DNA of 63,879 bases, counting the filler, from Phoronis australis (Eukaryota > Animalia > Phoronida): assembly GCA_002633005.1 (NCBI GenBank). It is 8 parts of 8 records of this genome, joined end to end, with 100 filler letters (N's around TTAATTAATTAA, not from the genome) between each part and the next. Parts side by side here need not be neighbours in the genome. Positions count along the whole stretch, not along the records: positions 1 to 27,158 come from NMRA01000882.1; 7 more parts are not named here. One strand, given 5' to 3'. Below the pieces are notes generated by a model. The model saw nothing but the letters and a program-made list of their open reading frames with translations, made no database searches and had not been told where the DNA came from. The stretch's first letter is position 1, and every line of letters starts with the position of its first letter. Below are positions 255 to 57,918 of this stretch, piece by piece. The translations under genes and the position numbers were made by a program.

Positions 255-656
255 GAAAACTTTAGTTTCAAAAAGTTAGTTCCTTGAAAGCGGATGTTCG
301 GAAAACTTAGTTTCAAAAACTTAAGTTTTGATGACTTATGTTTTTTACTAAAAACTTGCTCCAAAATTTAACTTTTTCAAAAAGTTAAGTTTCTGAAACT
401 TAAGTTTTCCAAAATTTTAAGTAATTTGGAAAAAAATTTTGCCACAAACTTAAGTTTTTAAAATTTAAGTTTTCAGAAAACTTAAGTTTTTTAAAACTGA
501 AGCTTTTAGAATAAGTTTTTGAAATTTAAGTTATGAAAACTTAAGTTGGTTCCAAAAAACTTGTTCCAAAATACTAAGTTTTCAGCAAAAACTTAAGTTT
601 TCGCGAATCAAAACTTAAGTTTTTCGATGAAAACTTAATTTCATTTTGGTAAGGGT
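255..656. repeat. Array of degenerate palindromic AAACTTAAGTTT motifs, probably the end of a non-autonomous DNA transposon
   Basis: Many spaced copies of AAACTTAAGTTT-like palindromes. The array ends in TTCATTTTGGTAAGGG, where sequence shared with the large repeat module begins abruptly. Confidence 0.55.
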
Positions 657-2872
657 AGGGTTTGACGCAAACGCGGGCTGATACCGTCAAGTGAAATCCC
701 AGTCACTCTGTCTAACCTAAACACGACCAAACTTTAAAGAAACAATATAACAAGAAGAGAGTACAACACTAGAATACAGTTTACTATTTTTGCAATTCAC
801 ATGTGTTAGGTCGGCATAGTCAAACCTTAGAGAGACTACCTTCAAAAGGTAAAAGCCTATCATGCAAAAACGGCGATTAAACAAACTGGAGGATAAAATT
901 GAAATATTTGACGCTAGTTACTGAATAATGTTTAATGAAAGATTTTCAGCATGATGATGAAAGCATATACATTCATGCCCGGTGACAACACGTGCATCTC
1001 TGAATACTTTCAATTCAATAAATGCAAGTGGTAATGACAACTTGTGTTAATTAAAGTGTATGCAAATGACTATAAAGCATTGTGCCAGAAACCATTGACG
1101 CATCTCCATTGTAATCCGAAGTAAATGCTTAGGAAATGTCAGTCACTCAGCAAAACTCGATTATGTTATCAACGTGAATTTTGTTTTAGTTTCCTGCCAA
1201 ATGATGTAAAGGTTGGAAGACGGCATTTGGTTACAAGACTATCAATTGCAATGACAGAATTCATCAAATTGGCAGATGAGGATTCTGAGCGAGAACTGGA
1301 GAAGTCTTACGCAGACAGAGAGGAGAGTGGAGACGGGCATTAAACCGAAGTACCGGAAGAATCAGAAAATGAATTTGACTTCCAGTCAGCGAACTTTAAT
1401 CGGCTTTGTGCCGGCTCGGCCAACTTGCAGGAGAAATGATGCAGTCATAAGTGAGCCCCAATCAACTGAACCAAGGAATCGTCAACATTAACAAAACAAA
1501 CACTCAGTAATCAATGACGAGGGTTACAGTAAACCCGAGTAACTTGTGGTTGTCATGATAGAATGAGCACGGCGAGGCTAAAAAAAATTGGCCAAATCAC
1601 AATCAAGGTCCATATTCGGTGGCAAGTAACAAGCTTTATAAACAACATGTCCTATAAAAATTATATCATTATTTTGACCCTTCCCGTGAAAATATCAAGA
1701 AGTCTACTATCTGATATCTTCCCTATATCTATTTTGTGGTCTTCAAGGTACTTGAAAATGAGTACAACAGGAACAATATTTAATATACACATGCAATATG
1801 AACGATTGCGTCTGCAGTAACAATAGCTATTATGGAATATGGTCCCTATGTGTCTTATGTATTTCTATAACATTTTACATGATAAACTGCTTACGTTTGA
1901 CCTACATGTATTGATTTGGCACGTGTCAGAACTCAACTGTCTCCATCAACTTTCAACTACGACGACACTCAGTTCAAAAGTATCCTGCAGCTGCATGCCA
2001 CCAGGTCCTCTAGCAAATACGCTGACCATAGTAACTCATGGTATATGTATATAGGATATATTGACTTGCTTGATGACTACATGTACTAGAGAGTCCACTT
2101 AGATAAATCACGATACATCGGACAGATAGTGGCATCTTAACTGGCCTCTAGGTTCATCTATATAAATTAAGAGTAACTCATTATATATCGGATACATTGA
2201 CTTTTCTAATGCCCGTTAGGATCGCACATACAAAGCCTCCTATTTGTGGTGAATTTGGAAACATTTAATATACTGACCTCTTTACTTATCACCAAGAACA
2301 CATATAATATCGGATGCATCGATTCCCGTACTAGCCACTAGGATAGTACATGCTTTTTCAAGGCCCTATTTACAAAACATTATTTAACCAGTGCCACCAG
2401 TGGGTAAGGCTTCTAGTTCGAACTTACGCTATAACGGATACATTCTATGCATGTGTTTCTTAGGCTTGTGGCCGGTACGCCGCCTGTTGGTTTGATCGCA
2501 AAAACAAGGAACTCTTTAATGTACTCTGTCAGGGTACATGTATATCGGATATGTATATGCGTACACTGTAGATTATACAGGTCCATATCGATAACTTGTG
2601 ACCGATAGCTTTGGCTTGCAGCTAAATGTCAAGTCAAGTCAGGATATACATGTATCTGATACCGAGATGATTTATTGAATTGGACCGAGTTTTTAATTAC
2701 AGCACCACAATGTGATAGGACGCAAATGTTTTATGTAAACACGATTGATACGGAACAAGTTGAAACCATTTCGACACCTGCTTGAGAAGTAGAGTGAGTT
2801 GCACTCCATCAGTAACTCTGGAGAAAGACAGTGGTAACATACTTCAGAATTTGATTGGCACACTTATCTTAC

Positions 2873-2971
2873 CGTATTGGGAACTGTGGCATCGGCACCC
2901 TTTTTTAGAAGGAGTTCAACAACAGCTAACTGGCCACACGAAGACGCTTCGTGTAGGGGCGTGTCGCCTTT
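2873..2971 (-). CDS. Ankyrin-repeat exon A (99 nt, phase 0): [33 protein letters not shown]
   Basis: Manual reverse-strand translation gives the G-x-TPLH...G...VVELLL..GAD consensus. Acceptor TTGTTGTAG, donor GTAAGA, no stop. Confidence 0.9.
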
Positions 2972-4158
2972 CTACAACAAGCATTAAAAGCGACTGACAA
3001 ACCATCAAGATAATTACACCATTTCAATGTGTTTGGTGAACAATTCGTGTAAATGAAAACGAGAATGAACTAATTGAAGTCAAAATATCAAAGAATATTT
3101 TATCAAAAATAAAACTAAGTTCAACACGAAGCAGATATGATATCAAACATTATATGATTATTTTCATGCACATAGTAAAAGCAAAAGGAAAATATTTTGG
3201 AAGATTTTAACAACAATTTGGAAATCACGTGCTCAGGAAATAAAATCTGATAGGAAATAAAATCTGATCATATTATGGGAACCATGGTTTTGGTATCAAC
3301 GCACCTTTCCTTCTTTCTTAAACCTTAATAACGATATGTTCACGTGACTCAAATAATGAAAGATAAGTAAACGGTGAAAAATCCAATTCAGCAGTTCCCT
3401 TAATGAGACCCAAATGTGTGTGTAAACACGACTGATACGGAACAAGTTAAAACTATTTTGACACATGCTTGAGAAGTAGAGCGAGTTGCACTCCATCAGT
3501 AAGTCTGGAGAAAGACAGTGACAACGTACGTGTGTTACCGACCGACAAGTTATGGTTCGTAAAAAGAGAACAGTTCTGTGTTAGTCGACTTCAACGGATA
3601 ACTTATAGTGCATCATCAGAAATTAAAGGACTACGAACAAATTTGTTTTTATATCGACGATTTCAATTAAATGTTACTTTGAAGGAGCTTCATTAGAAAC
3701 AATTTTGACAGCCATATACGTGCGTATTTAGCGAATGCGCCAATAACGCGTCTTACTACCAATTTTTTTTTTTGCTCTAGTATTTCGCATGTAGGTATAA
3801 CTAATTTTCACTTGGTTGTTTTATGTCATGAGCCAATTATTTGTACTTTTCATTTTAAGCTAATATTGAGTTAAGAACACCACAGCGTCTATCGTTGTGA
3901 GTGTATAATCAGGCTCCAGTCATATTTATTTTTAGAAACTTGACTTTACAATTATGGACACCCAAATCCCACTACTAATCCTCACATTAACGACGCTTCA
4001 ACAAAGTTTCGAAATTTTTAAAAATTCGATGTAATTTCAGTGACAATAAGACAAAAAATGTACATTTTGACACTTGCTTGAGAGTTACACTCCATCAGTA
4101 AGTCTGGAGAAAGACAGTGATAACATACTTCAGAATTTGATTGGCACACTTATCTTAC

Positions 4159-4257
4159 CGTATTGGTAGCTGTGGCATCGGCACCCTTTTTTAGAAGGAG
4201 TTCAACAACCTCTAGCTCGCCAGACAAAGACGCAGAGTGCAGGGGCGTATCGCCTTC
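4159..4257 (-). CDS. Ankyrin-repeat exon B (99 nt): [33 protein letters not shown]
   Basis: Intact ankyrin consensus and donor GTAAGA. The acceptor is TTGTTGAAG (AAG rather than YAG, so weaker). Confidence 0.8.
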
Positions 4258-4835
4258 CTTCAACAAGCATTAAAAGCGATTGACAATCCATAAACATAAT
4301 TACACCATCTCCATGTGTTTGGTGAACTACAAGTGTAAATGAAAACGAGGTTGACCTAATTAAAATCAAAATGTCAAAGAATATTATCAAAACTAAAACT
4401 GAGTTCAACATGAAGCAGATATGATATAAAACATTATATGATTATTTTCATACACATAGTAAAAGCAAAAGGGAAATATTTTAGAAAATTGTAACCACAT
4501 TTTTGAAATTTTGTGCTCAAGATTGATAGGAAATAAAATCTAATCATATTATGGGAAATATGGTTTTGGTATCAACGCACCTTTCCTTCATTCTTCAATC
4601 TTAATAACGATATGTTCACGTGACTCAAATAATGAGAGATAAGTAAACGGTGAAAAATCCAATTCAGCAGTTCCCTTAATGAAACCCAAATGTGTGTGTA
4701 AACACGACTGATACGGAACAAGTTGAAACCAATTTGACACCTGATTGAGAAGTAGAGTGAGTTGCACTCCATCAGTAAGTCTGGAGAAAGACAGTGATAA
4801 CACACTTCAGAATTTGATTGGCACACTTATCTTAC

Positions 4836-4934
4836 CGTATTGGTAGCTGTGGCATCGGCACCCTTTTCTAGAAGGAGTTTAACAACATCTAGCTCGCCAT
4901 CCTTAGACGCGAAGTGCAGGGGCGTGTCGCCTTC
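4836..4934 (-). CDS. Ankyrin-repeat exon C (99 nt): [33 protein letters not shown]
   Basis: Intact ankyrin consensus, TAG acceptor, GTAAGA donor. Confidence 0.9.
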
Positions 4935-5058
4935 CTACAACAAGCATTAAAACGATTGACAAACCATAAATATAATTACACAATTTCAATGTGTTTGGTG
5001 AACAACTCGTGTAAATGAAAACGAGGTTGACCTAATTAAAATCAAAATGTCAAAGAAT

Positions 5059-5350
5059 NNNNNNNNNNNNNNNNNNNNNNNNNNNNNNNNNNNNNNNNNN
5101 NNNNNNNNNNNNNNNNNNNNNNNNNNNNNNNNNNNNNNNNNNNNNNNNNNNNNNNNNNNNNNNNNNNNNNNNNNNNNNNNNNNNNNNNNNNNNNNNNNNN
5201 NNNNNNNNNNNNNNNNNNNNNNNNNNNNNNNNNNNNNNNNNNNNNNNNNNNNNNNNNNNNNNNNNNNNNNNNNNNNNNNNNNNNNNNNNNNNNNNNNNNN
5301 NNNNNNNNNNNNNNNNNNNNNNNNNNNNNNNNNNNNNNNNNNNNNNNNNN
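5059..5350. other. Plain assembly gap (292 N) inside the ankyrin-exon array
   Basis: N run without the linker. Both flanks are short-unit intron sequence, so further exon copies may be hidden. Confidence 0.95.
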
Positions 5351-5406
5351 TCTGGAGAAAGACAGTGATAACATACTTCAGAATTTGATTGGCACACTTA
5401 TCTTAC

Positions 5407-5505
5407 CGTATTGGTTGCTGTGGCATCGACACCCTTTTTTAGAAGGATTTCAACAACATCTAGCTTGCCATACCTAGACGCAAAGTGCAGGGGCGTGTCG
5501 CCTTT
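5407..5505 (-). CDS. Ankyrin-repeat exon D (99 nt): KGDTPLHFASRYGKLDVVEILLKKGVDATATNT
   Basis: Intact ankyrin consensus, TAG acceptor, GTAAGA donor. Confidence 0.9.
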
Positions 5506-8500
5506 CTACAACAAGCATTAAAACGATTGACAAACCATAAATATAATTACACCATTTCAATGTGTTTGGTGAACAACTCGTGTAAATGAAAACGAGGTTG
5601 ACCTAACTGAAGTCAAAGTGCCAAAGAATATTATCAAAAATAAAACTGAGTTCAACATGAAGCAGATATGATATCAAACAGTATATGATTATTTTCATAC
5701 ACATAGTAAAAGCAAAATGGAAATATTTTAGAAAATTGTATCCACATTTTTGACGTTTCGTGTTCAAGATTGATAGGCAATAAAATCTGATCATATGATG
5801 AGAACCATTGTTTTGGTCAGCAGTTCCCTTAATAAAACCCTATATGTACAATAACAGTTTTGATGTCCACAGTTTTTAAGCATTATTCATAATACGAAAA
5901 ATGGTCTACATACAAAACCTTAACACAAGCATTGTGCACTGTGAGCAAAACAGACGCGGTACAGCATGGGAAGTAACAAGACACTAACACTTTTAAAACA
6001 GTGGTTTGTAATACAATCACGTGACTCGTCTTCAAGTCGCGGACAGGGGGGCGGTTGCTTGGAAACTTTCAGTACGGTGTACCGTAACATAGGTGTCAAT
6101 CCTCAGCACCTGAAGCACCATCAGGCAAAGTTTTTTTCGATTGTGTGCCAAACAAAAACCACAAAGTTACCCATAGCCGTTCTGGTGACACCTGATGGAC
6201 CGTCGGTTGACCAGAGTGATGCTGCCATGGGTTTACAATATCGATTGTTGTCGCGTCAGAACGTTGGTTTGCATCTTAACAATACATGTACCTGAATCAA
6301 ATATCAAGCGAAGCTCGGTCTAAACCCCGCCAACTGAATTCGGTCAACTTTTTGTCGCAGTGAGAATAGCCATCAAGAAACAATCTCTTGCGTTTCAGTA
6401 ATACACAATATGCACTCAGATTCCAAGTGACATTTATTTGACCACCTGAGCATACACCGTATGCAATATATTTATTGAACACATTGCAATGAACATTACT
6501 CCTAAAGAGGAACAACCAGAACGAACATTTGTAAGAGCAGAAACATGTAAACCATTGCAGATCAGTGGAATGCGACGCGTAACCAGGCACATGCTTCTAC
6601 ATGTATATCTGCTGTTTGTAAAATACGGACATTTTCCAACTGAGGTGGGTCCCATATGCCTGGTGTTACATTTGCTAGCGCGGGTAGATATCCTGTGTAT
6701 CAGTGGATGCGTTTTCTGTGCTTTGTAATTATTTAATTCAACGCAAGGTTGTAAATACTCTCAGATACAGTGCGATAAAGATATAAGAAAACCCAAGACA
6801 CATTGGCCAGTTCTTAGTTAATTTTAAGTTTGTATAAGGATGCCAATAAAATCTTTACTGACATCACACTTATTGTCTCAACTGTACAAAATGCTTCGGA
6901 TCTTTCTGACAATAGTCTGTTCCCACGACAATCTTAGTGTCTTTACCTGTAAGCAAGCCCCCTTAATAACCAACGAAATGTCCATGTGCATTATCAATAT
7001 TATGTTGCGGCCTGCAACGGAAATGTATCAGTAAAAGAACCGTTATTCCTACATTTGAAGAGCACACCAAAATTGAAATGTTAAACAAATTTAAGTAAAT
7101 TTTGACATGACGATGTGCCGTAGCACAGTTTCGCTGACTTGCGTACTTAATCTTATTGAGAAGCGTGGAATAAGCACCACTCCAAGCTACTTTGTGGTGC
7201 CACTCTACGGGAAGTATAAAAATCGGTTACTTACACAAGCACTGCCTCAGCAACTTTTGGATTGCCATGATCAACAGGATCGCATAAGAGCAGCAAGAAT
7301 CAGGGGAATTTTTCCATTCATGTGTTTCACGTATGTAGCCCTTATGCACTCCATTGTAAGTTCATGTATACATGTATATCTTTTGGATTAGTGCATGGTT
7401 GTAAGTCTTCATGTATTTTTGGGTCTAGGCTTTGCCGTAAACACGGGCTGATACCGTCAAGTGAAATCCCAGTCACTCTGGCTAAGCTGTGGACGGAAAT
7501 CATTAAACAAGACGAAACTTTTACTGATATTACATAACAAGAAGAGAGTACAACACTAGATTGCAGTTCGCTATTTTTGCATTTCACGTGTTTTAGGTCG
7601 GCATCGTCAAACCATAGAGATATTACAATCAAAGGTAAAAAAATATTAATGCAAAAACAACGATTATACCAACTGGAGGATAAAATTGACATATTTGACG
7701 CTAGTTACTGAAATATGTTAAACGAAATATTTTCAGCATGATCATGAAAGCATATACACTTATGCCCGGTGGCAACACGTGCATCTCTGAATACTTTCAA
7801 TTCAATAAATGCAAGTGGTACTGACAACTTGTGTTAATTAAAGTGTATGCAAACCTTATATAAACATTGTGCCAGAAACCATTGATGCATCTCCATTGTA
7901 AAACGAATCAATGTTTAGGAAAGGTCAGTCATTCAGCAAAACGCGATTACACTGCCCAACATGAATTTTCTTAGTTTCCTGCAAATGATGTGAAGGGTGG
8001 AAGACGGCATTTGGTTACAAGACAATCAAGTGCAATGAAAGAATACATCAAATTGGAAGAAGAGGATTTTGAGCGAGAACTGAACAAGTCTTAGGCAGAC
8101 AGAGAGGAGAGTGGAGACAAGCATTAAACCGAAGTACCGGAAGAATCAGAAAATGAATTTGACTTCCAGTCAGCGAACTTTATTCGGCTTTGGGGCCGGC
8201 TCGGACAACTTGCAGGAGAAATGATGCAGTCATATGTGAGCCCCAATCAACTGAACCAAGGAATGGTCAACATTAACAAAACAGACACTCAGTAATCAAT
8301 GACGAGGGTTACAGTAAACCCGAGTCACTTGTGGTTGTCATGATAGAATGAGCACGGCGAGGCTAAAAACGATCGTATCATATAACTGCAATATCTGGGT
8401 TGTTTTAAAGTAGCGTCTTACTAGGTTTGTAATGTAAAATATTTTTGCACAAGAACCACCGAATAAAATTCCATAGCCTAATGCATCACAGTTGTATAAA

Positions 8501-10490
8501 AGGGTTAGTACACTACAACATGTGGTCACAACTCACTTCTATCATGCAACAATACCTAAGGTTGCGGTTAATTGAATACGTTCTTGATCAGACGGAGGAA
8601 GTATCAAAAGTTTTTCTAGACGGTGACACATTGCATATCTTAACACAGTATAATTAGAACTTCTTCTTTTGCAATGTGATTCTTACAAAAAGAAAATAGT
8701 AAGTAGCTACTTTTTACAAAAACCTTATCGGTGGTATTTGCCCAGTTTGTAATACATTCATCAGTTGTTCAAATGGATTAGCAATGCTGGGCCCAGTGTT
8801 CAAATTGTGAACAGTAAAAAATGGTACTGTTGGGGGGTACGTACACTGCGCAGTCAATCAACGTGAAATTTGACTAAGTTACAAATGTATGGGATGGTCT
8901 CGAGTTTTGTGCTGCATCTACTAGTTTGTTTGTTACAAGTTGTCTTGAGAGGTAGAGAAAATTCCTCTGTAACATCAGTTGTCACATGACGTGTCTTCTA
9001 GGATGTTACTGGCTAACCCCTGTGTGTCATTTTATTGTCAGCGAACTTGACAATGTCTATGCTTTTTGTCATACTGGATGCATTTTGGAAATACCAGTAT
9101 TCAGTTCAAGAGAACCGCGGGTACGAAAAAACACATTAGGGCAATACTTTATAGTACACTACACGGGTTTACGTACAATGCACTTCAATGACTTGTCAGG
9201 TTAATAAAAATTCCTTAGATTATACTGAGAGTAAGTTCATTTACCAAATGTATTCAGAGAGAATAAATAAAAAGTACAGCATACACGTCCATTTCTGCCT
9301 GTCAATCTTTGAAAACAGGCACATGTTAAAATATAGGGGTAGTTGCACTACATAAATCCTAATATTTCACTCAAAACAAATGTATTTGTAAGTAACACGC
9401 TTTAACCTAGCTTTTTAATTGAGGAAGCTGTCTGTGACAAGTGTTGCTTACTTACCGTGTAATGTTTTTGCTTCATGGTATATGTTCATATCGGCGTACG
9501 TACACTACATGTCAATGACATGTCAGGTTTGTAACGAAATACTGAGAATCTATTGAGAGATAGCTGATTTACTAAGTCAATTAATTCAAAGAGGAAAAAA
9601 AAAAGCACACATATCTACCATACTTTGAAAATCAAAATAATCGGGTATGTAAGCTGCACAAATGCTAAAAATTCACTCAAAACAAATGTATTTGCAATAA
9701 ACACCCATTCAACCTAACATTTGAAGGAAGGACACTGTGTATAACCAATGCTGCTCACTTACCAATTTTAAGTTCATGGCATTTGTAAATATTGGGGTAC
9801 GTACATGTACACTACATCACCTTTTCTGCATCACATGGTAACACAATGCTGTATGACAATTTATTTTTCTTTGGTTTTAATAAGCACCATGTTGTTATTT
9901 AAAAGGCAATAATTTTATTTGAAATGACAATTTGTGTTAATGATTTCCACATGGGGGTACGTACACTACATTCTTATACTAGCCTTTTGGCCCATTTTCA
10001 GCAGAGCAGAACCCAGTCGATATCAAAACCTTTGGTTTGTTCAGATATTGAATAATTTGCTGTGTTGCCTAGGCTAACATATTCTACAGTTCATTTTAGT
10101 ACATAGTGTGTCTTTAACCTTCTTTTCAGTGAGAATTAAACAACATAATTGATAAATTGCGTAACGAGTACCTGTTTTATGATGAACCCTACCATTCCCC
10201 AATGATTAATCATAACTTCATCTAAGTGAATACGAAAGTGACTCAAATTGTTCCCAGCCGTATCAAAGCAATTGCTTACTTAATAAAATGCATTTCTATT
10301 CTGCTGTAGACAGTTAAAAATTGTAATTTTTAAAATGGCCACTCGTATCGCAAAAATGCATGAATTTCATAGATAAAAACATGCATACATTTCTCAAACA
10401 ATGTCCGATTTTTTATTTTCACAGCTATACAACTCTTTGCATGAGACTCGGTTGGCATTTGGTGAGTGTCCAACAATTTTATTTTTTGTC

Positions 10491-11238
10491 AACGGGTGAT
10501 TGGATTCACAAACTAGGCGTGATTAGAACGTTGGATTATCGAGCGAGAACCATCTCCAACACAGAGGAGGACATTGATTTTGACTTAGAACACAACAGAA
10601 CAGTGCTGAAAAGATGTGGGTACCCGAAGTGGTCTTTCCACAAGGCAAACCATGACAGAGTCAGGCCTCAGAACACGCAGCCGGACAATAGGGGAAACAT
10701 CAGGGTAACATTGCCTTTTGTGCCAGGGATCGCTGATCAGATCAAATCACATATGAGGGGACATGGCATTGCTGTTGTATTCAAACCTGTTAACACCATA
10801 AGGAGTCAATTGTTAAATGTGAAAGACAAAACCAACAAAGAGAAAACATCAAATGTGGTGTATGGTATTTCATGCTCGGAACTGGGGTGTGGAGCAGCAT
10901 ATATTGGGGAAACCAAACAAGCCCTGAAAAGTCGTTTCAACCAACTTTGGATGTCCAGTTATGGGGACTGCTATGATTCTGCAGTTTTTACTCACATGGC
11001 TTCCACAGACCATTCTTTCGCCATGGAAGATGTGAAGATCCTGGACAGAGAAGAAAATTGGTTTCGGAGAGGGGTCAAAGAAGCTATCTACGAGAGAATC
11101 GAGCATCCTAGCCTCAATAGACAGGGGCGCTGCGGTTTCACTTACCTAGGACATGAGATAGGGCTCTGAAGAGAATCCCGCAGAAACTGTACGACGGATC
11201 ACATGACAAGTCACGTGACAACTCAGTGGCCTGATGAA
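10491..11238 (+). mobile_element. 5'-truncated Penelope-like retroelement fragment (RT C-terminal region + GIY-YIG endonuclease)
   Basis: ORF 10360-11169 contains HKLGVIRTL..RA, CGYPKW, VTLPFVPG, NVVYGISC..CGAAYIGETKQ.L..R, SAVFTH, ILDREENWFRRGVKEAIY and PSLNR. It is frameshifted near the end. The first ~44 aa of the ORF are read-in from flanking repeat sequence (compare 18433 ff). Confidence 0.9.
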
Positions 11239-13414
11239 ATAAGTTCCCTACCATTTCCCCTAGTTGTCGTTTTATTGCTCAGGCACGTTCGCGCAACTTC
11301 CAGGTTGCCGAACAACGCGTTCAAAGAACTTGTGGCTACTGCAGTTACAGCAAATTTAGCTTTTGGTTCTTTAAGTAAACCATAAAAACTTAAAATGGAT
11401 AATTTTATGTTGAATCCACGTAAATAAAGAAACGGTGGTATCTTTCCTAATGTTAGCCCAACTACTTCACTTGTCTATAAGTGCCGGCGAAACGTGGTTA
11501 TGCAATGACCAGGACATATTTAAAACACATATTTTTAAACAAGCATCAGACACACTGTGTGTATCGGGGTATCGAAACATTGCAGGGTTCATTGCTTCAC
11601 CAAAGATGTCGCGGTGCTCAAACGAACGAAACCTTGTGTATGCAGTTGGTGGTCGACCTTAGTGCTCCACACTGTATAAAGGTTTGCGTTTAAAAGTCAC
11701 ATGAGTAATGCAAATTGTTTTCAAAACCGTGTGCTAAAGTTGTGGTCTCAACATATGAAATATTGACAAGGGACTTTGTTAGAATTGTTGTTGAAGCTCC
11801 ATGTACACGTACGATTCAATGTACGTTCGATAGTGAAAACACTGAGAATCGGGAGGTGCACGTGCAGGGTGGCACTCTCCTGGACTCTCGTGGGATTATT
11901 AAGAGACTTAGCCTGTAACTGTGTATTGACAAAAAATAACAGTCTCAAAGATATTTACTGCCCAATGAATATGACAAAAAACAGTGTTTGATAGTTTTGA
12001 AAGGAGATTTCACCGTGCTCACAACGAAAACACAATTCACACAAGGCATCAAAAATATGATGCTAGTTTTCAACCACATTGCCGAAGAAACTAATTGAAT
12101 TATAATACAACATGTAACCACTAAGACGGTTGTCATTATATCAGGTCATTCATTGAGGTTATAAAGTGTAACACGAATAAATATTTTAATAACAAACATT
12201 ACTCAAAAGGCGATTGCCTGTTTCACATATTTACCAAAGGAGTTTTATAACTTCCACCTTCTCCACAGAATACATTCATTGTAAATATGATGGGAAGTGT
12301 TATGTTTAAGAACTCAAAATCTCACAATTTGAAACCACCAAACTGCACTTCTCACTATATTGTTGAAGTTCCAGCAAACTCGTCAAAATCACTACGATTC
12401 ATTTTCCGTTTAAACATATAATAAATGTTTTGAATTATGACTTTGTCTCATCCTTTTCGAAAATAAGAAATCTTCTGTTCATTCGTTTGGGTTTTTGTGT
12501 TTTGTATAGTGTACACGCTGTTTTTGACGCGCTGTGTCTTGAATAATGTCGTGGTACCCAAAATAAGATTGTCGTGTGAGGGGTGAACCAAACTTATTGG
12601 GTGGGTCCAGACTATAGTGTTTACGTAATCTTTACTTTTGTGGTGAAGATCCACAAGACCACGCATTGTGATTTAGTCTTGTCACTTTTATCCCATTGTC
12701 AACTGTCGCATCAACATTTTTTGAGACGGAAATTCACAACTCGTACAGTGTAGTACTTTATTTGATTATGATCAAAAAATTGCAATTTCTAAAAAGACGA
12801 TGGGATTCGACACTTTTACATGGGCGGCGCAGCACTGAAAAAAGTGGGGGCAAAAGGGCCCAGACCCCTGTGGTGCACCGCAAATAGACCATGGGTGGCG
12901 GAACTTTGAAAAAGTGGGAGCTACAACACCCCAGCCACCCACGGGGCGGCGACCGTGAGATAAGTTGAGAATGGGAATAGCTATTGAAAAGGAGTGTAGG
13001 GAATATTTAGATAACCAAACATTCCATGCCGCCTGTTGGTTTGATCGCAAAAACAAGGAACTCTTTTATGTACTCTGTCAGGGTACATGTATATCGGATA
13101 GGTATATGCGTACACTCTAGATTATACAGGTCCATATCGATAACTTGTGATCGATAGCTTTGGCTTGCAGCTAAATCTTAAATCAAGTCAGAATATATCT
13201 GATACCGAAATGACATCTCGAATTGGACCGAGTTTGCTATTACCGCACCATATTTTGATAGGACGCAAATTTGTGCGTAAACACGATTGAGACGGAACAA
13301 GTTGAAACCATTTTGACACCTGCTTGCGAAGTAGAGTGAGTTGCAGTCCATCAGTAATACTGGAGAAAGACAGTGGTAAAATACTTAAGAATTTGATTGG
13401 CACACTTATCTTAC

Positions 13415-13513
13415 CGTATTGGGAGCTGTGGCATCGGCACCCTTTTTTAGAAGGAGTTCAACAACATCTAGCTTGCCACGCATAGACGCGAAGTGCAGGG
13501 GCGTGTCGCCTTT
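13415..13513 (-). CDS. Ankyrin-repeat exon E (99 nt): [33 protein letters not shown]
   Basis: Intact ankyrin consensus, TAG acceptor, GTAAGA donor. Confidence 0.9.
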
Positions 13514-16368
13514 CTACAACAAGCATTAAAAGCGACTGACAAACTATGAATCTAATTACACCATTTCCATGTGTTTGGTGAACAACTCGTGTAAATGAAA
13601 ACGAGGTTGACCTAATTAAAGTCAAAATGTCAAAGAATATTATCAAAACTAAAACTGAGTTCAACATGAAGCAGATATGATATCAAACATTATATGATTA
13701 TTTTCATACACATTGTAAAAGCAAAAGGGAAATATTTTAGAAGATTGTAACAACATTTTTGAAATGTCGTGCTCAAGACTGATAGGAAATAAAATACGAT
13801 CATATTATGGCAACCGTGGTTTTCGTATCAACGCACCTTTCCTTCTTTCCTAAACCTTAATAACGATATGTTATATATAACTCAAATAATGAAAGCTAAC
13901 GGTGAAAAATCGAATTCAGCAGTTCCCTTAATGAAACCCTATATGTACATTAACAGGGTTGATGTCCACAGTTCTTAGACATTCTTGATAATGCGGAAAA
14001 TGGTCAACATGCAAAACCCAAAAACAAGCGTTGTGCAAGGCGAGCCAAACAGACGCGGTACAGGATGGAAGTATCAAGACATTAACACTTTTAAAACAGG
14101 GTTATGTAATACAATCACGTGACTCGTGTTCATGTCGCGGACAGGCGGGCGGTTGTTTGGAAACTTTCAGTTCGGTGTACCGTAACATAGGCGTCAATCC
14201 TCAGCAACTGAAGCACCATCAGGCACATTTTTTTTTCGATTGTGTGCCAAACAAAAAACACAGAGTTATCCATAGGCGTTCTGTTGACAAATGATGGACC
14301 GTCGGTTGACCAGACTGATGCTGCCATGGGTTTACAATATCGATTGTTGTCGCGTCAGAACGTTGGTTTGCATCTTAACAATACATGTACCTGAATCAAA
14401 TATCAAGCGAAGCTCGGTCTATACCCCGCCAACTGAATTCGGTCAACTTTTTGTCGCTGTGAGAATAGCCATCAGGAATCAATCTCTTGCGTTTCAGTAA
14501 TACACAACATGCACTCAGATATCAGCTGACATTTATTCGACCATCTGAGCATACACTGTATGCAGTAGATGTATTGAACACATTGCAATGAACATTACTC
14601 CTCAAGAGGAACAATCAGAACGAACATTTTTAAGAGCAGAAACATGTAAAGCATTGCAGATCAGTGGAATGCGACGAGTAACCAGGCACATGCTTCTATA
14701 TCTGCTGTTTGGAAATACGGACATTTTCCAACTGAGGTGGGTCATATATGCCTGGTGTTACATTTGCTAGCGCGGGTAGATATCCTGTGTATAAGTGGAT
14801 GCGTTTTTCTGTGTTTTGTAATTATTTAAATACCCTCAGATACAGTGCGATAAAGATATAAGAGAGATAAAGACACATGGGCCTGTTCTTAATTGTTTTA
14901 AGTTTGTATAAGGAAGCCAATCCAATCTTTACTGACATCACGATTATTGTCTCAACTGTACAAAATGCTTCGGATCTTTCTGACAATAGTCTGTTCCTAC
15001 GACAAGCTTAGTGTCTTTACATATAAGCAAGCCCCGTTAATAACCACCCACATGTCCATGTGCATTGTCAATATTATGTTGCGGCTTGCAATGGACATGT
15101 ATCAGTAAAAGAACCGTTATAACTCCAGAACCACTCCAAGCTGCTTTGTGTTGCCACCCTACGGGAAGTATAAAAAGCGGTCAATTACATGTACACAAGC
15201 ACTGTCTCAGCAACTTTAGGATTGCCATACTCAACAGGATCGCACAAAAGTAAATGAAGAGCGGTGCAGCAAGAATCAGGGAAAATTTTCCATTCATGTG
15301 TTTCACTTATATATGTATCCCTTATGCACTCCATTGTAAGTGCACGTATACATGTATTTCCTTTGGATTAGTGCTTGGTTGTAAGTGTCCATGTATTTTT
15401 GGGTCTAGGCTTTGCCGTAAACACGGGCTGATACCGTCAAGTGCGATCCCAGTCACTCTGGCCAACCTGTGGACGGAAATCATTAAACAAGACCAAACTT
15501 TTACTGATACTACATAACAAGAAGAGAGTACAACACTAGAATGCAGTTCGCAATTTTTGCAATTCACGTGTGTTAGCTCGGCATAGTCAAACCTTAGAGA
15601 GATTACCTTCAAAGGTAAACAATATCAATGCAAAAACAACGATTACACAAACTGGAGGATAAAATTGACATATTTGACGCTACTTACTGAAATATGTTTA
15701 ACGAAAGATTTTCAGCATTATCATGAAAGCATATACATTTGTGCCCGGTGGCAACACGTGCATCTCTGAATACTTTCAATTCAATAAATGCAAGTGGTAC
15801 TGACAACTTGTGTTAATTAAAGTGTATGCAAACGTAATATAAAGCATTGTGCCAGAAACCATTGATGCATCTCCATTGTAAAACGAATCAATGTTTAGGA
15901 AAGGTCAGTCATTCAGCAAAACGCGATTACACTGCCCAACATGAATTTTCTTAGTTTCCTGCAAATGATGTGAAGGGTGGAAGACGGCATTTGGTTACAA
16001 GACAATCAAGTGCAATGACAGAATACATCAAATTGGAAGACTAGGATTTTAAACGAGAACTAGACAAGTCTTATGCAGTCAGAGAAGAGAGTGGAGACGG
16101 GTATTAAACCGAAGTACCGGAAGAATCAGAAAATGAATTTGACTTCCAGTCAGCGAACTTTAATCGGCTTTGGTGCCGGCTCAGTCAACTTGCAGGAGAA
16201 ATGATGGACTCTTATGTGAGCCCCAATCAAATGAACGAAGGAATGGTCAACATTAACAAAACATACACTCAGTAATCACTGGCGAGGGTTACAGTAAACC
16301 CGAGTCACTTGTGGTTGTCACGATAGAATGAGCACGGCGAGGCTAAAAACAATCGGCCAAATCACAAC

Positions 16369-18592
16369 CAAGGTCCATATTCGGTGGCAACTTTTGGTGA
16401 AGAGTGAAAGTTGTCATGTAACTTTAAAAGCTGGATTGTTTTAAAGTACCGTCTTCCCAGGTTTGTATTCTAAAATATTTTGCACAAGAAACATCGAATA
16501 AAATTTCATGACCTAATGCATCACAGTTGTATAAAAGGGTACGTACACTACAACTTGCGGTCACAGCTCACTTCTATCATGCAACAATTCATAAGGTTGT
16601 GGTTAATTTAATACGTTCTTGATCAGATTGAGGAAGTATCACATATTAAAGTTGTTCAAGTTGTTCTAGACGATGATATATTGCATATCTTAACGCACTA
16701 TCATGAGAACTTCTTCTCTTGCAATGTGATTCTTACAAAAAGGAAATGGCAAGTAGCTCCTTTTTCAAAAACTTTATTGGTGCTATTTGCCTAGTTTTCA
16801 ACACATGCACCAGTTGGTCAAAATATCTAGGCAATGCTCGGCCCAGTTTTCAACTTGTAAACTGTAAAAAATGGTACTGTTGGAGGGGTACGTACACTGT
16901 GCAGTCAATCAACGAGAAATTTGACTAAGTTACAAATGTATGGGATGGTCTCGAGTTTTGTGCTGCATCTACATGTACTCGTTGGTTTGTTGCAAGTTGT
17001 CTTGAGAGGTAGAGAACCTTCCTCTGCAACATCAGTTGTCACGTGACGTGTCTTCTAGGCTGTTACTGGCTAGCCCCTGTGTGTCATTTTATTGCCAGCG
17101 AACATGTTAATGACCATTGTTTTTGTCATACTTGATGCATTTTGGAAATACCAGTATTCAGTTCATGAGAACTGCGGGTATGTAAAAATAATTGTGGGCA
17201 ATACTTTATAGCACAGTGGTTGAAGGTACGTACACTACACAGGCTTACGTGCGCTACACTTCAATGACTCGTAAGGTTAATAAAAAGTTCTTAGAATATA
17301 CTGAGAGTTTGTTCATTTACCAAATGTATTCAGAGAGAACAAATAAAAAGTACAGCATACACGTGCATTTCTGCCTGCCATTCTGTGATAACAGGAAAAT
17401 TTTAAAATATAAGGGTAGTTGCACTACATCAATCCTAATATTTCGCTCAAAACAAATGTATTTGTAATTAACACCCTTTGACCTGGCATTTTAATTGAGG
17501 AACCTGTCTGTGACAAGTGTTGCTTACTTACTGTGTAATGTGTATGCTTCATGGTATTTGTTCATATCGGGGTACGTACACTACATGTCAATGACATGTC
17601 AGGTTTGTAACGAAATACTAAGAATCTATTGAGAGATAGCTGATTTATTAAGTCAATTCAAAGAGGAAAAATAAAAAGCACACACATCTGCCATACTTTG
17701 AAAATCAAAATAATGGGGTATGTACGCTACCCAAATGCGAAAATTTTACTCCAAATAAATGTATTTGCAACAAACACCCATTCAACCTAACATTTGAAGG
17801 AAGGACACTGTGCATGATGAATGCTGCTCACTTACCAAGTGATATTTCAATGTCATGGCATTGGGGTACGTACACTACATGTACATCACTTTTTCTGCAT
17901 CACATCGTAACACAATGCTGTATGGCCATTTAGTTAACTTTGGTGATAATAAGCACCATGTTGTTATTTAAATGGCATTAATTTCATTTGCAATGACCAT
18001 TTGTGTTACTGAATTCCACATGGGGGTACGTACACTACATTCTTCTAGCCTTTTGGCCCATTTTCAGCATAGCAGAGCCCAGTCGATATCAAAACCTTTG
18101 GTTTGTTCAGATATTGAATAGTTTGCTGTGTTTCCTAGGCTAACATATTCTACAGTTCTTTTTAGTACACTGTGTGTCTTTAACCTTCTTTTCAGTAGGT
18201 GAGGGTTAAAAAACAAAATTGATAAATTGCGTAACGAGTACCTGTTTTATGATGAACCCTACCATTCCTCAAAGATTAATCACTACTTCCTCTGCAAGTC
18301 AATATGAAAGTGACTCAAATTGTCCCCAGCCGTATCAAAGCAATTGCTTACTTAATAACATACATTTCTTTTCTGCTGTTGACAGTTAAAAATTTTAATA
18401 TTTAAATGGGCCACTCGTAACGCAAAAAATGCATGAAATTCATAGACAAAAACATGCATACATTTCTTAAACATTGTCCGATTTTTTTATTTCCACAGCT
18501 ATACAACTCTTTGCATGAGACTCGGTTGGCATTTGGTGAGTGTCCAACAATTTTATTTTTTGTCGGTAACACAGTCTCGAATATGGGTCTTG
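16369..18592. mobile_element. Putative ~2.2-kb non-autonomous DNA transposon within the intronic module
   Basis: Imperfect terminal inverted repeats CAAGGTCCATATTCG / CGAATATGGGTCTTG (13/15) and repeated internal GGGTACGTACACTAC motifs. Truncated copies at ~1604, ~8370-10490 and ~23548-24775. Confidence 0.5.
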
Positions 18593-20743
18593 ATAATGAT
18601 TTACCCGAATACATACATGCAAGCCTAGTACATGTAGGTGGCTTAGCACTTCATCTAGACCGGGGTCGAGTGCCTGGCATCGAGTGCCCTAGAATGAAAG
18701 CAGTTAGCTTGTTATTGGTAAAATTTGATAGTACACTTGCAAGGAAGCGAGTCCTTTATCGTAACCCCACCAGTGTGCTTGGTCGAAGTGCAATTCCTTG
18801 AAATGTGTCGAACAAAGTATGGTTCCCGACTGAATCGCATGTTCCAAAATGACATTCCACACTCTCGTGCGGACGATAAACCGATGTCATTTCTGTTCAA
18901 CTTTCACGTTTTTTTTGAAATATGAAAATTCAGAGACGTTCTCAGTCAAGTTGCAGTTACTATAGCGTCCACTAACACACCTTTTAATATCTACAAAGGC
19001 AGTTCTCCGCCAACGTTCCTCCAAACTCAGTTTCGCACTGGTGAAAACTACAACGACTAACTGTCTTCCAGCCACTACGTACATTTACATGTACATGCAC
19101 AACAACAATCGAAATGTTTTGCTTGTTTCCTAGCAACAGCTATACTAAAGGCTACTAAATGCCTTCAGATGTATTAATAAAAATGTTTTTGAGACACAGG
19201 GTCTTGGTTGAAACTTATTATGGACAGTGATTAAGAGACTTAGGCTGTAACTGTGTATTGACACGAGATAACAGTCTCAAAGATATTTACTGCTCAATGA
19301 ACATGACGAAAACAGTGTTTGATAGTTTTGAATGGAGATTTCACCGTGCTCACAACGAAAACACAATTCACACAAGGCATCAAGAATTTGATGCTAGTTT
19401 TCAATCACATTGCCGAAGAAAATGATTGAATTATAATACAACATGTAACCACTAAGACGGTTGTCATTATATCAGGTCATTCACTTGAGGTTATAAAGTG
19501 TAACCCGAATAAATATTTTAAAAACAAACATTACTCAAAAGGCGATTGCTTGTTTCATATAATTACCAAAGGAGTTTTATAACTTCCTTCTTCTCCAAAG
19601 AATACATTCATTCTAAATATAATGGGAAGTGTCATGTTCAACCACTCAAAATCTCACAACTTGAAACCCCCAAACTGCACTTCTCACTGTATTGTTGAAG
19701 TTCCAGCAAACTCGTCAAAATCACTACGATTCATTTTCCGTTTAAACATATAATAAATGTTTTGAATTATGACTTTGTCTCATCCTTTTCGAAAATAAGA
19801 AATCATTTGTTCATTCGTTTAGGTTTTTATGTTTTGTAGAGTGTACACGCTGTTTTTGACGCGCTGTGTCTTGAATAATGTCGTGGTACCCGAAATAAGA
19901 TTGTCGTGTGAGGGGTGAACCAAACTTATTGGGTGGGTCCAGACTATAGTGTTTACGTAATTTTTACTTTTGTGGTGAAGATGCACAAGACCACGAATTG
20001 TGATTTAGTCTTGTCACTTTTATCTAAATTTCAACCGTCGCATCAACATTTTTTGAGACGGAAATTCACAAGTCGTGCAGTGTAGTACTTGATTATGATC
20101 AAACGATTGCAATTTCTAAAAAGACGATGAGATTCGACACTTTTACATGGGCGGCGCAGGACTGAAAAAAGTAGGGGCAAAAGGGCCCAGACCCTTGTGG
20201 TGCACCGCAAATAGACCATGGATGGCCCCACCTTAAAAAGTGGGAGCTACAACAACCCAGCCACCCATGGTGTGGCGCCCGTGAGAGAAGTTGAGAATGG
20301 GAATAGCTATTCAAAAGGAATATAGGAATATTTAGATAACCAAACATTCCATGCCGCCTGATGGTTTGATCGCAAAAACAAGGAACTCTTTCATGTACTC
20401 TGTCAGGATACATGTATATCGGCTAAGTATATGCGTACACTCTAGATTATACAGGTCTATATCGATAACTTGTGATCGATAGCTTTGCCTTGTAGCTAAA
20501 TCTCAAGTCAAGTCAGGATATATCTGATACCGAGATGATATATCGAATTGGACCGAGTTTGCTACGTATTACCGCACCATATTTTGATAGGACGCAAATT
20601 TGTGCCTAAACACGATTGACACGGAACAAATTGAAACCATTTCGACACCTGCTTGAGAAATAGAGTGAGTTGCACTAAATCAGTAACACTGGAGAAAGAC
20701 AGTGGTAACATACTTCAGAATTTGATTGGCACACTTATCTTAC

Positions 20744-20842
20744 CGTATTGACAATTGTGGCACCGGCACCCTTTTTTAGAAGGAGTTCAACAACATCTAG
20801 CTTGCCACCCATAGACGCGATGTGCAGGGGTGTGTCGCCTTG
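20744..20842 (-). CDS. Ankyrin-repeat exon F (99 nt): [33 protein letters not shown]
   Basis: Intact ankyrin consensus (GAD changed to GAG), TAG acceptor, GTAAGA donor. Confidence 0.88.
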
Positions 20843-21428
20843 CTACAACAAGCATTAAAAACGACTGACAAACTATAAAGATAATTACAGCATTTCCATG
20901 CGTTTGGTGAACAACTCGTGTAAATGAAAACGAGGTTGACCTAATTAAAGTCAAAATGTCAAAGAATATTATCAAAACTAAAACTGAGTTCAACATGAAG
21001 CAGATATGATATCAAACATTATATGATTATTTTCATACACATTGTAAAAGCAAAAGGGAAATATTTTAGAGGACTGTAACAACATTTTTGAAATCTCGTG
21101 CTCAAGATTGATAGGAAATAAAATCTGATCATATTATGGGAAACATGGTTTTGGTATCACCGCACCTTTCCTTCTTTCCTAATCCTTAGTAACGATATGT
21201 TCACGCGACTCAAATAATGAAAGATAAGTAAACGGTGAAAAATCAAATTCAGCAGTTCCCTTAATGAAACCCAAATGTGTGTGTAAACACGACAGGTACG
21301 GAACAAGTTGAAACCATTTTGACTCCTGCTTGAGAAGTAGAGCGAATTGCAATCCAGAGAAAGACTCTAATAACAGACCTCATCATTTGATTACATACTT
21401 CAGATTTTGATTGGCACACTTATCTTAC

Positions 21429-21527
21429 CGTATTGACAACTGTGGCATAGGCACCCTTTATTAGCAGGAGTTCAACAACATCTAGCTTGTCAAACATAGA
21501 CGCGATTTGCAGGGGCGTGTCGCCTTT
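21429..21527 (-). CDS. Ankyrin-repeat exon G (99 nt, framework-degenerate): KGDTPLQIASMFDKLDVVELLLIKGAYATVVNT
   Basis: Open frame and intact splice sites, but TPLH->TPLQ, G13D and GAD->GAY. Confidence 0.75.
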
Positions 21528-24500
21528 CTACAACGAGCATTAAAAGCGACTGACAAACCATAAACATAATTACACCATTTTTATGTGTTTGGTGAACGAC
21601 TCGTGTAAATGAAAACGAGCTGACCTAATTAAAGTCAAAATGTCAAAGAATATTATCAAAACTAAAACTGAGTTCAACATGAAGCAGATATGATATCAAA
21701 CATTATATGATTATTTGTATACACATTGTAAAAGCAACCATGGTTTTGGTATCAACGCACCTTTCCTTCTTTCCTAAACCTTAGTAACGATATGTCATAG
21801 AGTGTACATGACTCAAATAATGAAAGCTAAGTAAACGGTGAAAAATCAAATTCAGCAGTTCCCTTAATGAAACCCTATATGTACATTAACAGGGTTGATG
21901 TCCACAGTTTTTAGACATTCTTCATTATACGGAAAATGGTCAACATGCAAAACCCAAAAAACAAGCGTTGTGCACGGTGAGCCAAACAGACGCGGTACAG
22001 GATGGAAGTATCAAGACACTAACACTTTTAAAACAGTGTTATGTAATACAATCACGTGACTCGTGTTCATGTCGCGGACAGGCGGGCGGTTGTTTGGAAA
22101 CTTTCGGTACGGTGTACCGTAATATAGGCGTCATTCCTCAGCACCTGAAGCACCATCAGGCACAGTTTTTTTTCGATTGTGTGCCAAACAAAAACCACAG
22201 AGTTATCCATAGGCGTTCTGTTGACACCTGATGGACCGTCGGTTGACCAGAGTGATGCTGCCATGGGTTTACAATATCGATTGTTGTCGCGTCAGAACGT
22301 CGGTTTGCATCTTAACAATACATGTACCTGAATCAAATATCAAGCGAACTGAATCCGGTCAACTTTTTGTTGCAGTGAGAATAGTCATCAGGAATCAATC
22401 TCTTGCGTTTCAGTAATACACAACATGCACTCAGATTTCAACTGACATTTATTCGACCATCTGAGCATACACTGTATGCAGTATATTTTTTGAACACATT
22501 GCAATGAACATTACTCCTAAAGAGGAACAGTCCGAACGAACATTTGTAAGAGCAGAAACATGTAAACCATTGCAGATCAGTGGGATGCAACGCGTAACCA
22601 GGCACATGCTTCTATATCTGCTGATTGGAAAATACGGACATTTTCCAACTGAGGTGGGTCATATACATGCCTGGTGTTACAATTGCTGGCGCGGGTAGAT
22701 ATCCTGTGTATAAGTGGATGCGTTTTTCTTTTGGATTGCCATGATCAACAGGAACGCATAAAAGTAAATGAAGAGCGGTGCAGCAAGAATCAGGGAAAAT
22801 TTTCAATTCATGTGTTTCACTTATATATGTATACCTTATGCACTCCATTGTAAGTGCATGTATACATGTATTTCCTTTGGATTAGTGCATGGTTGTAAGT
22901 CTTCATGTACTTTTGGGTCTAGGCCTTGCCGTAAACACGGGCTGATACCGTCAAGTGAAATCCCAGTCACTCTGGCTAACGTGTGGACCGAAATCATTAA
23001 ACAAGACCAAACGTTTACTGATACTACATAACAAGAAGAGAGTACAACACTAGAATGCAGTTCGCTATTTTTGAAATTCACGTGTGTTAGCTCGGCATAG
23101 TCAAACCTTAGAGAGATTATCTTCAAAGGTAAAACAATATTAATGATGTGAAGGGTGGAAGACGGCTTTTGGTTACAAGACAATCAAGTGCAATGACAGA
23201 ATACATCAAATTGGACGATTAGGATTTTAAGCGAAAACTAGACAAGTCTTATGCAGTCAGAGAGGAGAGTTGAGACGGGTATTAAACCGAAGTACCGGAA
23301 GAATCAGAAAATGAATTTGACTTCCAGTCAGCGAACTTTAATCGGCTTTGGGGCCGGCTCGGCCAACTTGCAGGAGAAATGATGCAGTCATACGTGAGCC
23401 CCAATCAAATGAACCAAGGAATGGTCAACATTAACAAAACAGACACTCAGTAATCACTGACGAGGGTTAAAGTAAACCCGAGTCACTTGTGGTTGTCATG
23501 ATAGAATGAGCACGGCGAGGCTAAAAACAATCGGCCAAATCACAATCAAGGTCCATATTCGGTGGCAACTTTTGGTGAAGAGTGAAGGTTATCATATAAC
23601 TGTCAAAGCTCGGTTGTTTTAAAGTACCGTCTTCCCAGGTTTTTATTCTAAATAGTTTTGCACAAGAACCACCGAATAAAATTTCATAACCTAATGCATC
23701 ACAGTTGTAGAAAACGGTACGTACATTACAACTTGTGGTAACAGCTCACTTCTATCATGCAACAATACATAAGGTTGCGGTTAATTGAATGCGTTCTAGA
23801 TCAGATTCATCAAGTATCACATATTAAAGTTGTTCAAGTTGTTCTAGACGATGATACATTGCATATCTTAACACAGTATAATGAAAATTTCTTCTTTTGC
23901 AATGTGATTCTTACAAATAGAAAATGGCAAGTAGCTACTTCTTTCAAAAGCTTGATTGGTGGTATTTGCCCAGTTTGTAATACATTCACCAGTTAGTCAA
24001 AATATTTTAGCAATGCTCGGCCCCTTGTTCAACTTGTAAACAGTAAAAAATGGTACTGGTTGGGGAGTACGTACACTGCGCAGTCAATCAACGTGAAATT
24101 TGACTAAGTTACAAATGTATGGGATGGTCTCGAGTTTTGTGCTGCATCTACTAGTTTGTTTGTTGCAAGTTGTCTTGAGAGGTAGAGAACCTTCCTCTGT
24201 AACATCAGTTGTCACGTGACGTGTCTTCTAGGATGTTACTGGCTAACCCCTGTGTGTCATTGTATTGCCAGCGAACTTGATAATGTCCATTGCTTTTTGT
24301 CATACTGGATGCATTTTGGAAATACCAGTATTCAGTTCATGAGAACAGCGGGTATGTAAAAATACTTGTCGGCAATACTTTATAGCACAGGGGTTGAAGG
24401 TACATGTACGTACACTACACGGGTTTACGTACACTGCACTTCAATGACTTGTCAGGTTAATAAAAATTCCTTAGAATATACTGAAAGTTAGTTCATTTAC

Positions 24501-24828
24501 CAAATGTATTCAAGGAGAACAAATAAAAAGTACATCATACACGTGCATTTCTGTCTATCATTTTTTGAAAACAGGCACAAGTTAAAATATAAGGTTAGTT
24601 GCACTACATAAATGCTAATATTTCACTCAAAACAAATGTATTTGTAAGTAACACCCTTTAACCTATCTTTTTAATTGAGGAAGCTGTCTGTGACAAGTGT
24701 TGCTTACATACCGTATAATGTTTTTGCTTCATGTTGTTTGTTCACATCGGGGTACGTACACTACATGTCAATGACAGAGAAAGACACTAATGACAGACCT
24801 CGCAATTTGATTGACACTCTTATCTTAC

Positions 24829-24927
24829 CATATTAACAACCGTGGCATCGACGCCCTTTTCTAGAAGAAGTTCAACAACTGCTAGCTGGCCACGTGAAGA
24901 CGCTTCGTGTAGGGGTGTGTCGCCTTC
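24829..24927 (-). CDS. Ankyrin-repeat exon H (99 nt): EGDTPLHEASSRGQLAVVELLLEKGVDATVVNM
   Basis: Intact ankyrin consensus, TAG acceptor, GTAAGA donor. Confidence 0.9.
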
Positions 24928-27158: not shown

Positions 27159-27258
27159 NNNNNNNNNNNNNNNNNNNNNNNNNNNNNNNNNNNNNNNNNN
27201 NNTTAATTAATTAANNNNNNNNNNNNNNNNNNNNNNNNNNNNNNNNNNNNNNNNNNNN
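27159..27258. other. Artificial contig-joining spacer (N44-TTAATTAATTAA-N44); also at 30671-30770, 32264-32363, 36002-36101, 55548-55647, 58754-58853 and 62118-62217
   Basis: Seven identical 100-nt spacers. TTAATTAATTAA places stop codons in all six frames. Confidence 0.97.
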
Positions 27259-31624: not shown

Positions 31625-31813
31625 ATGGAGCAGAGTCCAAAAGGATCCTTGAAGCACATCATGATGGAGCAGAGTCCAAAAGGATCCTTGAAGCACATCA
31701 TGATGGAGCAGAGTCCAAAAGGATCCTTGAAGCACATCATGATGGAGCAGAGTCCAAAAGGATCCTTGAAGCACATCATGGAGCAGAGTCCAAAAGGATC
31801 CTTGAAGCACATC
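31625..31813. repeat. 36/39-bp minisatellite x5 in the predicted PKN 3' UTR
   Basis: (ATG)ATGGAGCAGAGTCCAAAAGGATCCTTGAAGCACATC in five copies, identical apart from the optional leading ATG. Confidence 0.95.
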
Positions 31814-31937
31814 AGCACCAATGTGGCATGATCACCAACATACAACATTCGTAGAACACTCCTCAGAATGCATAAAACATGCAAGCCTACATCCCACGAC
31901 CAGAGATTGATTTTAGGCCATTAGATTGTTCCCAATG

Positions 31938-57681: not shown

Positions 57682-57918
<237 letters not shown>

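Follow-up and report, generated by a model that had tools for sequence, protein, structure and literature searches.

What makes two adjacent codons of a duplicated exon differ in almost every copy while the two codons before them stay identical? The question is raised by a stretch of DNA from Phoronis australis (GenBank assembly GCA_002633005.1), hereafter the window, which comprises 63,879 nucleotides joined from eight parts and whose first 27,158 positions come from record NMRA01000882.1. Within positions 2873-24927, its minus strand carries eight exons (A to H), each of 99 nt with AG..GT borders, phase 0-0 and no stop codon, so that all eight copies follow the plan of one repeat per symmetrical exon. 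All eight also score above the curated cut-off of 21.1 bits of the Pfam family PF00023 (range 27.8-40.6), and each encodes one ankyrin repeat of 33 residues. We conclude that this is a real, expressed array of ankyrin exons, in which diversifying selection likely acts on the binding face of the repeats and to which conversion among the copies probably adds.

Codon variation in an array of one-repeat ankyrin exons

A sequence-only reading of the window had listed codon 12 of copies A-H as TGT, TCT, GAT, TAT, CGT, GGT, TTT and CGT, i.e. seven amino acids in eight copies, and codon 11 as TCG, TTG, AAG, AGG, ATG, ATG, ATG and TCA. Both series proved exact on re-reading, and codons 9-10 read GCG TCT in every copy. 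The same reading took the fixed third base beside variable first and second bases as the unusual trait, and described the variation as limited to a few codons. The fixity is real but not unusual, as the third base is invariant in 20 of the 33 codons; among the 16 codons with variation at base 1 or 2, it is invariant in 10. Codons 11-12 do stand out, but the variation is wider than described: codons 1, 8, 14, 16, 30 and 31 vary too, codon 8 at all three bases. Thus, the informative signal is the turnover of amino acids through first and second bases, and third-base constancy is unremarkable. Parsimony requires seven steps at bases 1-2 of codon 12 but no step at its base 3; at the second base of codon 11, all four bases occur. 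Over the exon, the mean pairwise difference at codon positions 1, 2 and 3 amounts to 0.175, 0.154 and 0.130, respectively, compared with 0.086 in 200 upstream intron columns; columns with at least three alleles account for 8 of 66 at bases 1-2 versus 10 of 250 in introns (p = 0.03). Once the variable codons had been set aside after inspection, the remaining framework codons showed a proportion of nonsynonymous differences (pN) of 0.053 versus a synonymous proportion (pS) of 0.111.

The protein context, which was absent from the first reading, offers a reason why these particular codons vary, as codons 8, 11, 12 and 31 are predicted to lie on the binding face of the ankyrin repeat. Single ankyrin repeats do not fold alone, and we took the face position from an alignment to a solved designed ankyrin repeat protein (DARPin; PDB 6MOL). 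Codons 11-12 correspond to the two residues after the start of the TPLHxAA helix, which differ among the DARPin repeats, and codon 8 aligns with a third differing position. In DARPins, it is the variable positions on the concave face that make up the surface for binding (PMC8683736, PMC8229355). We also compiled a set of 34 fungal-type NACHT-ankyrin proteins, six of which had at least 6 repeats with an identity of at least 65%. When the positions are ranked by variability, codons 1, 8, 11 and 12 fall within the top seven both in the array and in these six proteins.

Selection, conversion and competing explanations

The introns provide a built-in neutral control for the exon array. In neutral simulations of the exon, we took the maximum over all 33 codons of two statistics, namely the two-codon allele count and the occurrence of seven amino acids at one codon. 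None of 1500 simulations on the intron tree at the intron rate reached either of them, which bears out the departure from neutrality read from the sequence. At twice the intron rate, 1 of 1500 simulations reached the two-codon statistic and 8 the seven amino acids; with tenfold CpG rates, these numbers rose to 5 and 86. With star trees, which served to mimic free recombination, the two statistics were reached in 0-30 and 3-86 of 4000 simulations, respectively, at divergences of 0.10-0.20.

Codon site models, run with our own code and naive empirical Bayes assignment on eight copies of 33 codons, likewise support the positive selection at the hot codons that had been proposed beforehand. Overall, they favoured a class of sites with a nonsynonymous-to-synonymous rate ratio (omega) of ~8-10 (p = 4e-9 to 2e-4). 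The comparison of M1a with M2a gave a likelihood-ratio statistic of 38.9 for the intron tree and 17.1 for the exon tree, and it placed 12-23% of the sites at an omega of 8.5-9.3. The statistic was 21.6 under F3x4 frequencies, 16.6 for M8a against M8 and 16.7 for the six copies remaining after removal of A and H. Codon 12 was flagged in every run that included it, and codons 8, 11 and 31 were flagged in the eight-copy runs.

Several observations speak against selection on a binding face. Over the whole exon, pN (0.157) is close to pS (0.142). A generous null that combined twice the rate with fivefold CpG rates reached the two-codon statistic in 27 and the seven amino acids in 97 of 1500 simulations. 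Without codons 11-12, the test for selection gave p = 0.067, and the six-copy run left codon 12 alone flagged. The sample of eight copies and 33 codons is small, and recombination, which is present, can inflate site tests. The variability profile of the array correlates as well with vertebrate ankyrin-1 (0.47), in which the same positions vary, as with the fungal set (0.44). By itself, the location of the hot codons would thus fit low constraint and indicate only tolerance, and the case for selection therefore rests on the rate. Finally, we found no effector domain in the window and no close protein relative in profile searches. A search of 270 proteins returned generic ankyrin proteins only, with a best single repeat of 38.7 bits versus 79-87 for the window's own exons; in another, fungal NACHT-ankyrin proteins and vertebrate ankyrin-1 made up most of the best 120 of 5482 matches, with no close relative among these.

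Exon cores and introns likely have different histories. In the approximately unbiased (AU) test, the exon alignment rejects the intron tree (p = 0.005, or 0.018 without codons 8, 11, 12 and 31), while the exon tree is compatible with the intron alignment (p = 0.20). Copies A and H, which lie at opposite ends of the array, exclusively share 7 of 99 exon columns, spread over codons 6-16 and one of them synonymous; of the 414 upstream intron columns, which were compared in five copies, one is shared in this way (p = 6e-5). The conflict between the trees argues for separate histories, as expected of short conversion tracts or of introns homogenised around retained exon variants. Of the micro-conversion process suggested at first reading, the conflict and the sharing between A and H thus leave a role for conversion limited to the exon, which probably contributes.

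The same sharing is also what one would expect if the hot codons were merely unconstrained surface positions into which conversion from older paralogues imports old variation, the omega above 1 then being an artefact of recombination or small sample size. This is the most serious competitor, although we consider it improbable. It would explain why synonymous diversity in the exon (0.124 at four-fold sites; pS 0.14) exceeds the intron diversity of 0.086, it agrees with the copies outside the window that reads and contigs reveal (see below), and the variable positions of ankyrin-1 fit it as well. However, imported tracts would bring third-base changes along, which the steps at codon 12 and the invariant codons 9-10 lack. 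Moreover, no more than 30 of 4000 star-tree nulls attained the two-codon statistic at divergences up to 0.20, and the signal at codon 12 persists without A and H.

A local mutational hot spot behind codons 11-12, for example through CpG decay, had been named beforehand as an outcome that would overturn the case for selection; it is largely refuted and retains very little probability. In its favour, two copies have CGT and one has TGT at codon 12, the CpG observed/expected ratio of the window is 0.73, and exon CpG columns are more diverse than others (0.27 versus 0.13, by a definition biased to variable columns). Yet 9 of the 18 exon CpG columns are invariant, codon 9 among them, and five of the seven states of codon 12 are not one CpG transition away from CGT, and transversions are needed for most of the codon-12 states. 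Neither the four bases at the second position of codon 11 nor the 5 of 1500 simulations under tenfold CpG rates agree with decay.

In light of these results, the explanation that we favour, and regard as fairly probable, is that duplicated one-repeat ankyrin exons belong to a transcribed and spliced family whose predicted binding-face codons 8, 11, 12 and 31 are under diversifying selection, and that the protein likely recognises a fast-changing partner. Duplication would add repeats; unequal exchange and conversion would keep framework and introns alike and shuttle exon cores between copies; and selection would retain new residues on the binding face. The partner might be a pathogen or another non-self molecule. 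The window does not extend over the rest of the gene, so that an immune role can only be inferred. We recognised no NACHT, NB-ARC or ROC-COR exon among the open reading frames (ORFs) of the window, which were inspected by eye, with 12 translations scanned against Pfam.

Transcription and splicing of the exon family

To follow the family in expressed sequences, we mapped three raw RNA runs (X5, X6 and X7) and one DNA run of the same species label to exon E at 80% likeness. The pooled RNA reads include paralogues and alleles, and the RNA samples differ from that of the DNA run. RNA depth on exon E reached 19, 6 and 28 in the three runs and ended at the splice sites. First mates all lay on the plus strand, which under the usual stranded library corresponds to RNA from the minus strand. 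Reads in which the end of a family exon is followed directly by the beginning of another numbered six in X5 and six in X7, with none among the X6 matches listed; all 8 reads of X6 were less than 90% alike to exon E. Thus, the exon family is transcribed from the minus strand and spliced repeat to repeat. Reads matched to positions 2700-22000 were dominated by dispersed repeats, and the best 15 of 73 entries contained no joint between the named exons.

The only sites at which the pooled reads carried three other letters were bases 1-2 of codon 12, base 2 of codon 11 and base 1 of codon 8. None of the variants listed fell in codons 9-10 or on the third bases of codons 11-12. The read variation thus repeats the genomic codon pattern in other samples, though the reads pool alleles and paralogues. 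At seven positions, the reads contain letters absent from the eight window copies, which could recall somatic mutation or conversion of the hot codons during the animal's life; this is the least credible explanation of all, as RNA and DNA runs stem from different samples, the DNA run itself shows new letters, alleles and paralogues suffice to account for them, the pattern is already fixed among the genomic copies, and we saw neither a shared motif nor nearby machinery. The targeted mutation process proposed at first reading is unsupported for the same reasons, with hot codons that have no common motif and copies that are fixed in the assembly.

Loose ends of reads, translated by eye, point to neighbouring exons: upstream, a divergent ankyrin exon ending in SGCDINTVNE; downstream, an exon starting with EGKTAYDVCG that we read as resembling a terminal half-repeat; and an H-like exon spliced to one starting with EGWTP. 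Searches with short motifs did not find these neighbours in the window, and the ends of the gene and any signalling domain should therefore lie in the gaps, beyond the edge or in paralogues. Furthermore, a contig of run X1 holds the end of an H-like exon with its donor site that matches none of the window copies. It represents either a different allele or a copy beyond the eight; within the window, a profile search of all six frames detected no further ankyrin exon.

With constant inclusion of all eight exons, 1/8 of the reads crossing an exon 5' boundary would be expected to enter a non-family exon. We counted 7 of 13 such reads in X7 and 4 of 14 in X5, together 11 of 27. The excess is significant for X7 (p = 4e-4) and for both runs with mates halved (p = 0.005), with p = 0.09 for X5. 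It might reflect a natural DARPin library, in which transcripts splice only two or three interchangeable ankyrin exons between fixed capping exons and one gene yields a combinatorial receptor repertoire. We consider this an unlikely idea, since shorter alleles, paralogous genes or missed joints explain the excess equally well, and the loose ends of X5 are a mixed consensus.

Two exons deserve separate mention with respect to splicing. The acceptor of exon B (4258-4260) is AAG, compared with TAG in the other seven, and may be weaker and skipped more often. Exon G, with its framework losses H7Q, G13D and D27Y, may be decaying or rarely used; its read depth is the lowest in the mapping to positions 2700-22000.

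Relation to known systems and further features of the window

In protein terms, the locus appears to work like fungal NOD-like receptors (NLRs), and in construction it appears built like brown algal ROCO genes. In fungal NLRs, the ankyrin repeats are nearly identical to one another, and five of their positions, most of them on the concave face, are under positive selection (PMC4986451). The array shares with them near-identical 33-residue repeats, few putatively selected concave-surface sites and exchange between repeats (PMC4986451, PMC13449251). Unlike in the fungal proteins, each repeat here is encoded by a separate exon, with introns of 0.5-8 kb in between, the host is an animal, and we found no NACHT or other ATPase domain in the window. 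Near-identical ankyrin repeats are described as rare in animals (0.8% of the repeats surveyed) and enriched in ATPase-bearing proteins (PMC13449251). Highly internally conserved (HIC) repeats are delimited by a threshold of 0.7 in PMC13449251 and of 85% over 100 residues in PMC4986451; with a mean column identity of 82% (70-82% identity to copy A), the exons lie over the former and just below the latter. They likely also show the few positively selected binding-face sites of HIC repeats, as far as the face can be assigned by alignment.

Brown algal ROCO genes carry one leucine-rich repeat (LRR) per exon and undergo shuffling, selection and alternative splicing (PMC11378527). These LRR-ROCO genes and the NB-ARC genes with tetratricopeptide repeats (TPRs), candidate immune receptors of the algae, resemble the array in their in-phase one-repeat exons, exon duplication and shuffling, and diversifying selection; they differ in using LRR or TPR instead of ankyrin units and phase 2 LRR exons instead of phase 0, and alternative splicing is only hinted at here (PMC11378527). 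With DARPins, the array has in common a constant consensus framework and variable residues predicted on the concave face, codons 8 and 11-12 aligning with varying positions (PMC8683736, PMC8229355). DARPins, however, are engineered, codon 3 varies in the aligned DARPin but is an invariant Asp here, and codons 14, 16 and 30 vary here. Arthropod Dscam likewise has exons duplicated in tandem that vary in putative binding epitopes; its immunoglobulin exons are spliced in a mutually exclusive manner, and the available text of PMC3236188 reports neither positive selection nor conversion between paralogous exons. Strict mutual exclusion does not apply here, as the reads of X5 and X7 directly join family exons (the locus of these reads not being fixed).

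A literature search that was light on subscription journals and excluded supplements found no published case of a hypervariable animal array with one exon per ankyrin repeat. The array would carry the design of a constant scaffold with a variable binding face, known from the ankyrin repeats of fungal NLRs, over to an animal, and do so with one exon per repeat, a form that has otherwise been described for the LRR and TPR receptors of brown algae. If true, invertebrates would possess in intracellular ankyrin sensors a source of recognition diversity that has been overlooked. Should subset splicing hold, the locus would provide a combinatorial receptor built on a scaffold which engineers have independently chosen.

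Table 1 Features of the ankyrin exon array, in coordinates of the window.
Feature	Positions	Strand	Basis or remark
Ankyrin-repeat exon A	2873..2971	-	PF00023 E 2e-9; most 3' copy of the window
Ankyrin-repeat exon B	4159..4257	-	Exon borders and Pfam
Ankyrin-repeat exon C	4836..4934	-	Exon borders and Pfam
Ankyrin-repeat exon D	5407..5505	-	Exon borders and Pfam
Ankyrin-repeat exon E	13415..13513	-	Exon borders and Pfam; reference for pooled RNA reads
Hypervariable codons 11-12 of exon E	13478..13483	-	Same register in every copy
Ankyrin-repeat exon F	20744..20842	-	Exon borders and Pfam
Ankyrin-repeat exon G	21429..21527	-	Weakest Pfam match; framework changes H7Q, G13D, K23I, D27Y
Ankyrin-repeat exon H	24829..24927	-	Most 5' copy seen; most divergent
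Nested tandem duplications bearing the exons	656..27158	.	Longer units of ~7-8 kb and shorter ones of ~0.6-1.3 kb, for the most part 84-95% identical; reach the gap at 27159

Haplotypes assembled in tandem were considered as a source of the exon copies and rejected, since the exons differ by 8-26 of 99 bases. Positions 22728-23253 and 26633-27158, the latter beside the gap, are 98.7% identical; either they arose by duplication very recently, or the assembly has put two haplotypes in tandem. The intron between exons E and D contains an insertion (10490-11220) that is missing from the matching unit near 18564. At this insertion, an ORF on the plus strand (10327-11169) has a YIGET motif, which we take to recall the GIY-YIG nuclease of Penelope-like retroelements; it has no Pfam match, and related copies are transcribed. 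The gap at 27159-27258 and six further gaps are 100 bases each with a central TTAATTAATTAA filler, an assembly artefact and no palindrome. Minisatellites occur at 31625-31814, 33065-33272 and 29223-29485, with units of 39, 25 and 132 bases, respectively. Elsewhere in the window, the minus strand carries ordinary conserved genes. One contributes exons of alpha-catenin (48000-51450); the proteins that best match the catenin exon come mostly from nemerteans, annelids, brachiopods and molluscs, plus one from a hemichordate, none of them identical, which by itself makes a spiralian invertebrate the probable source. The other contributes the last exon of a MYST-family acetyltransferase (57682-57918).

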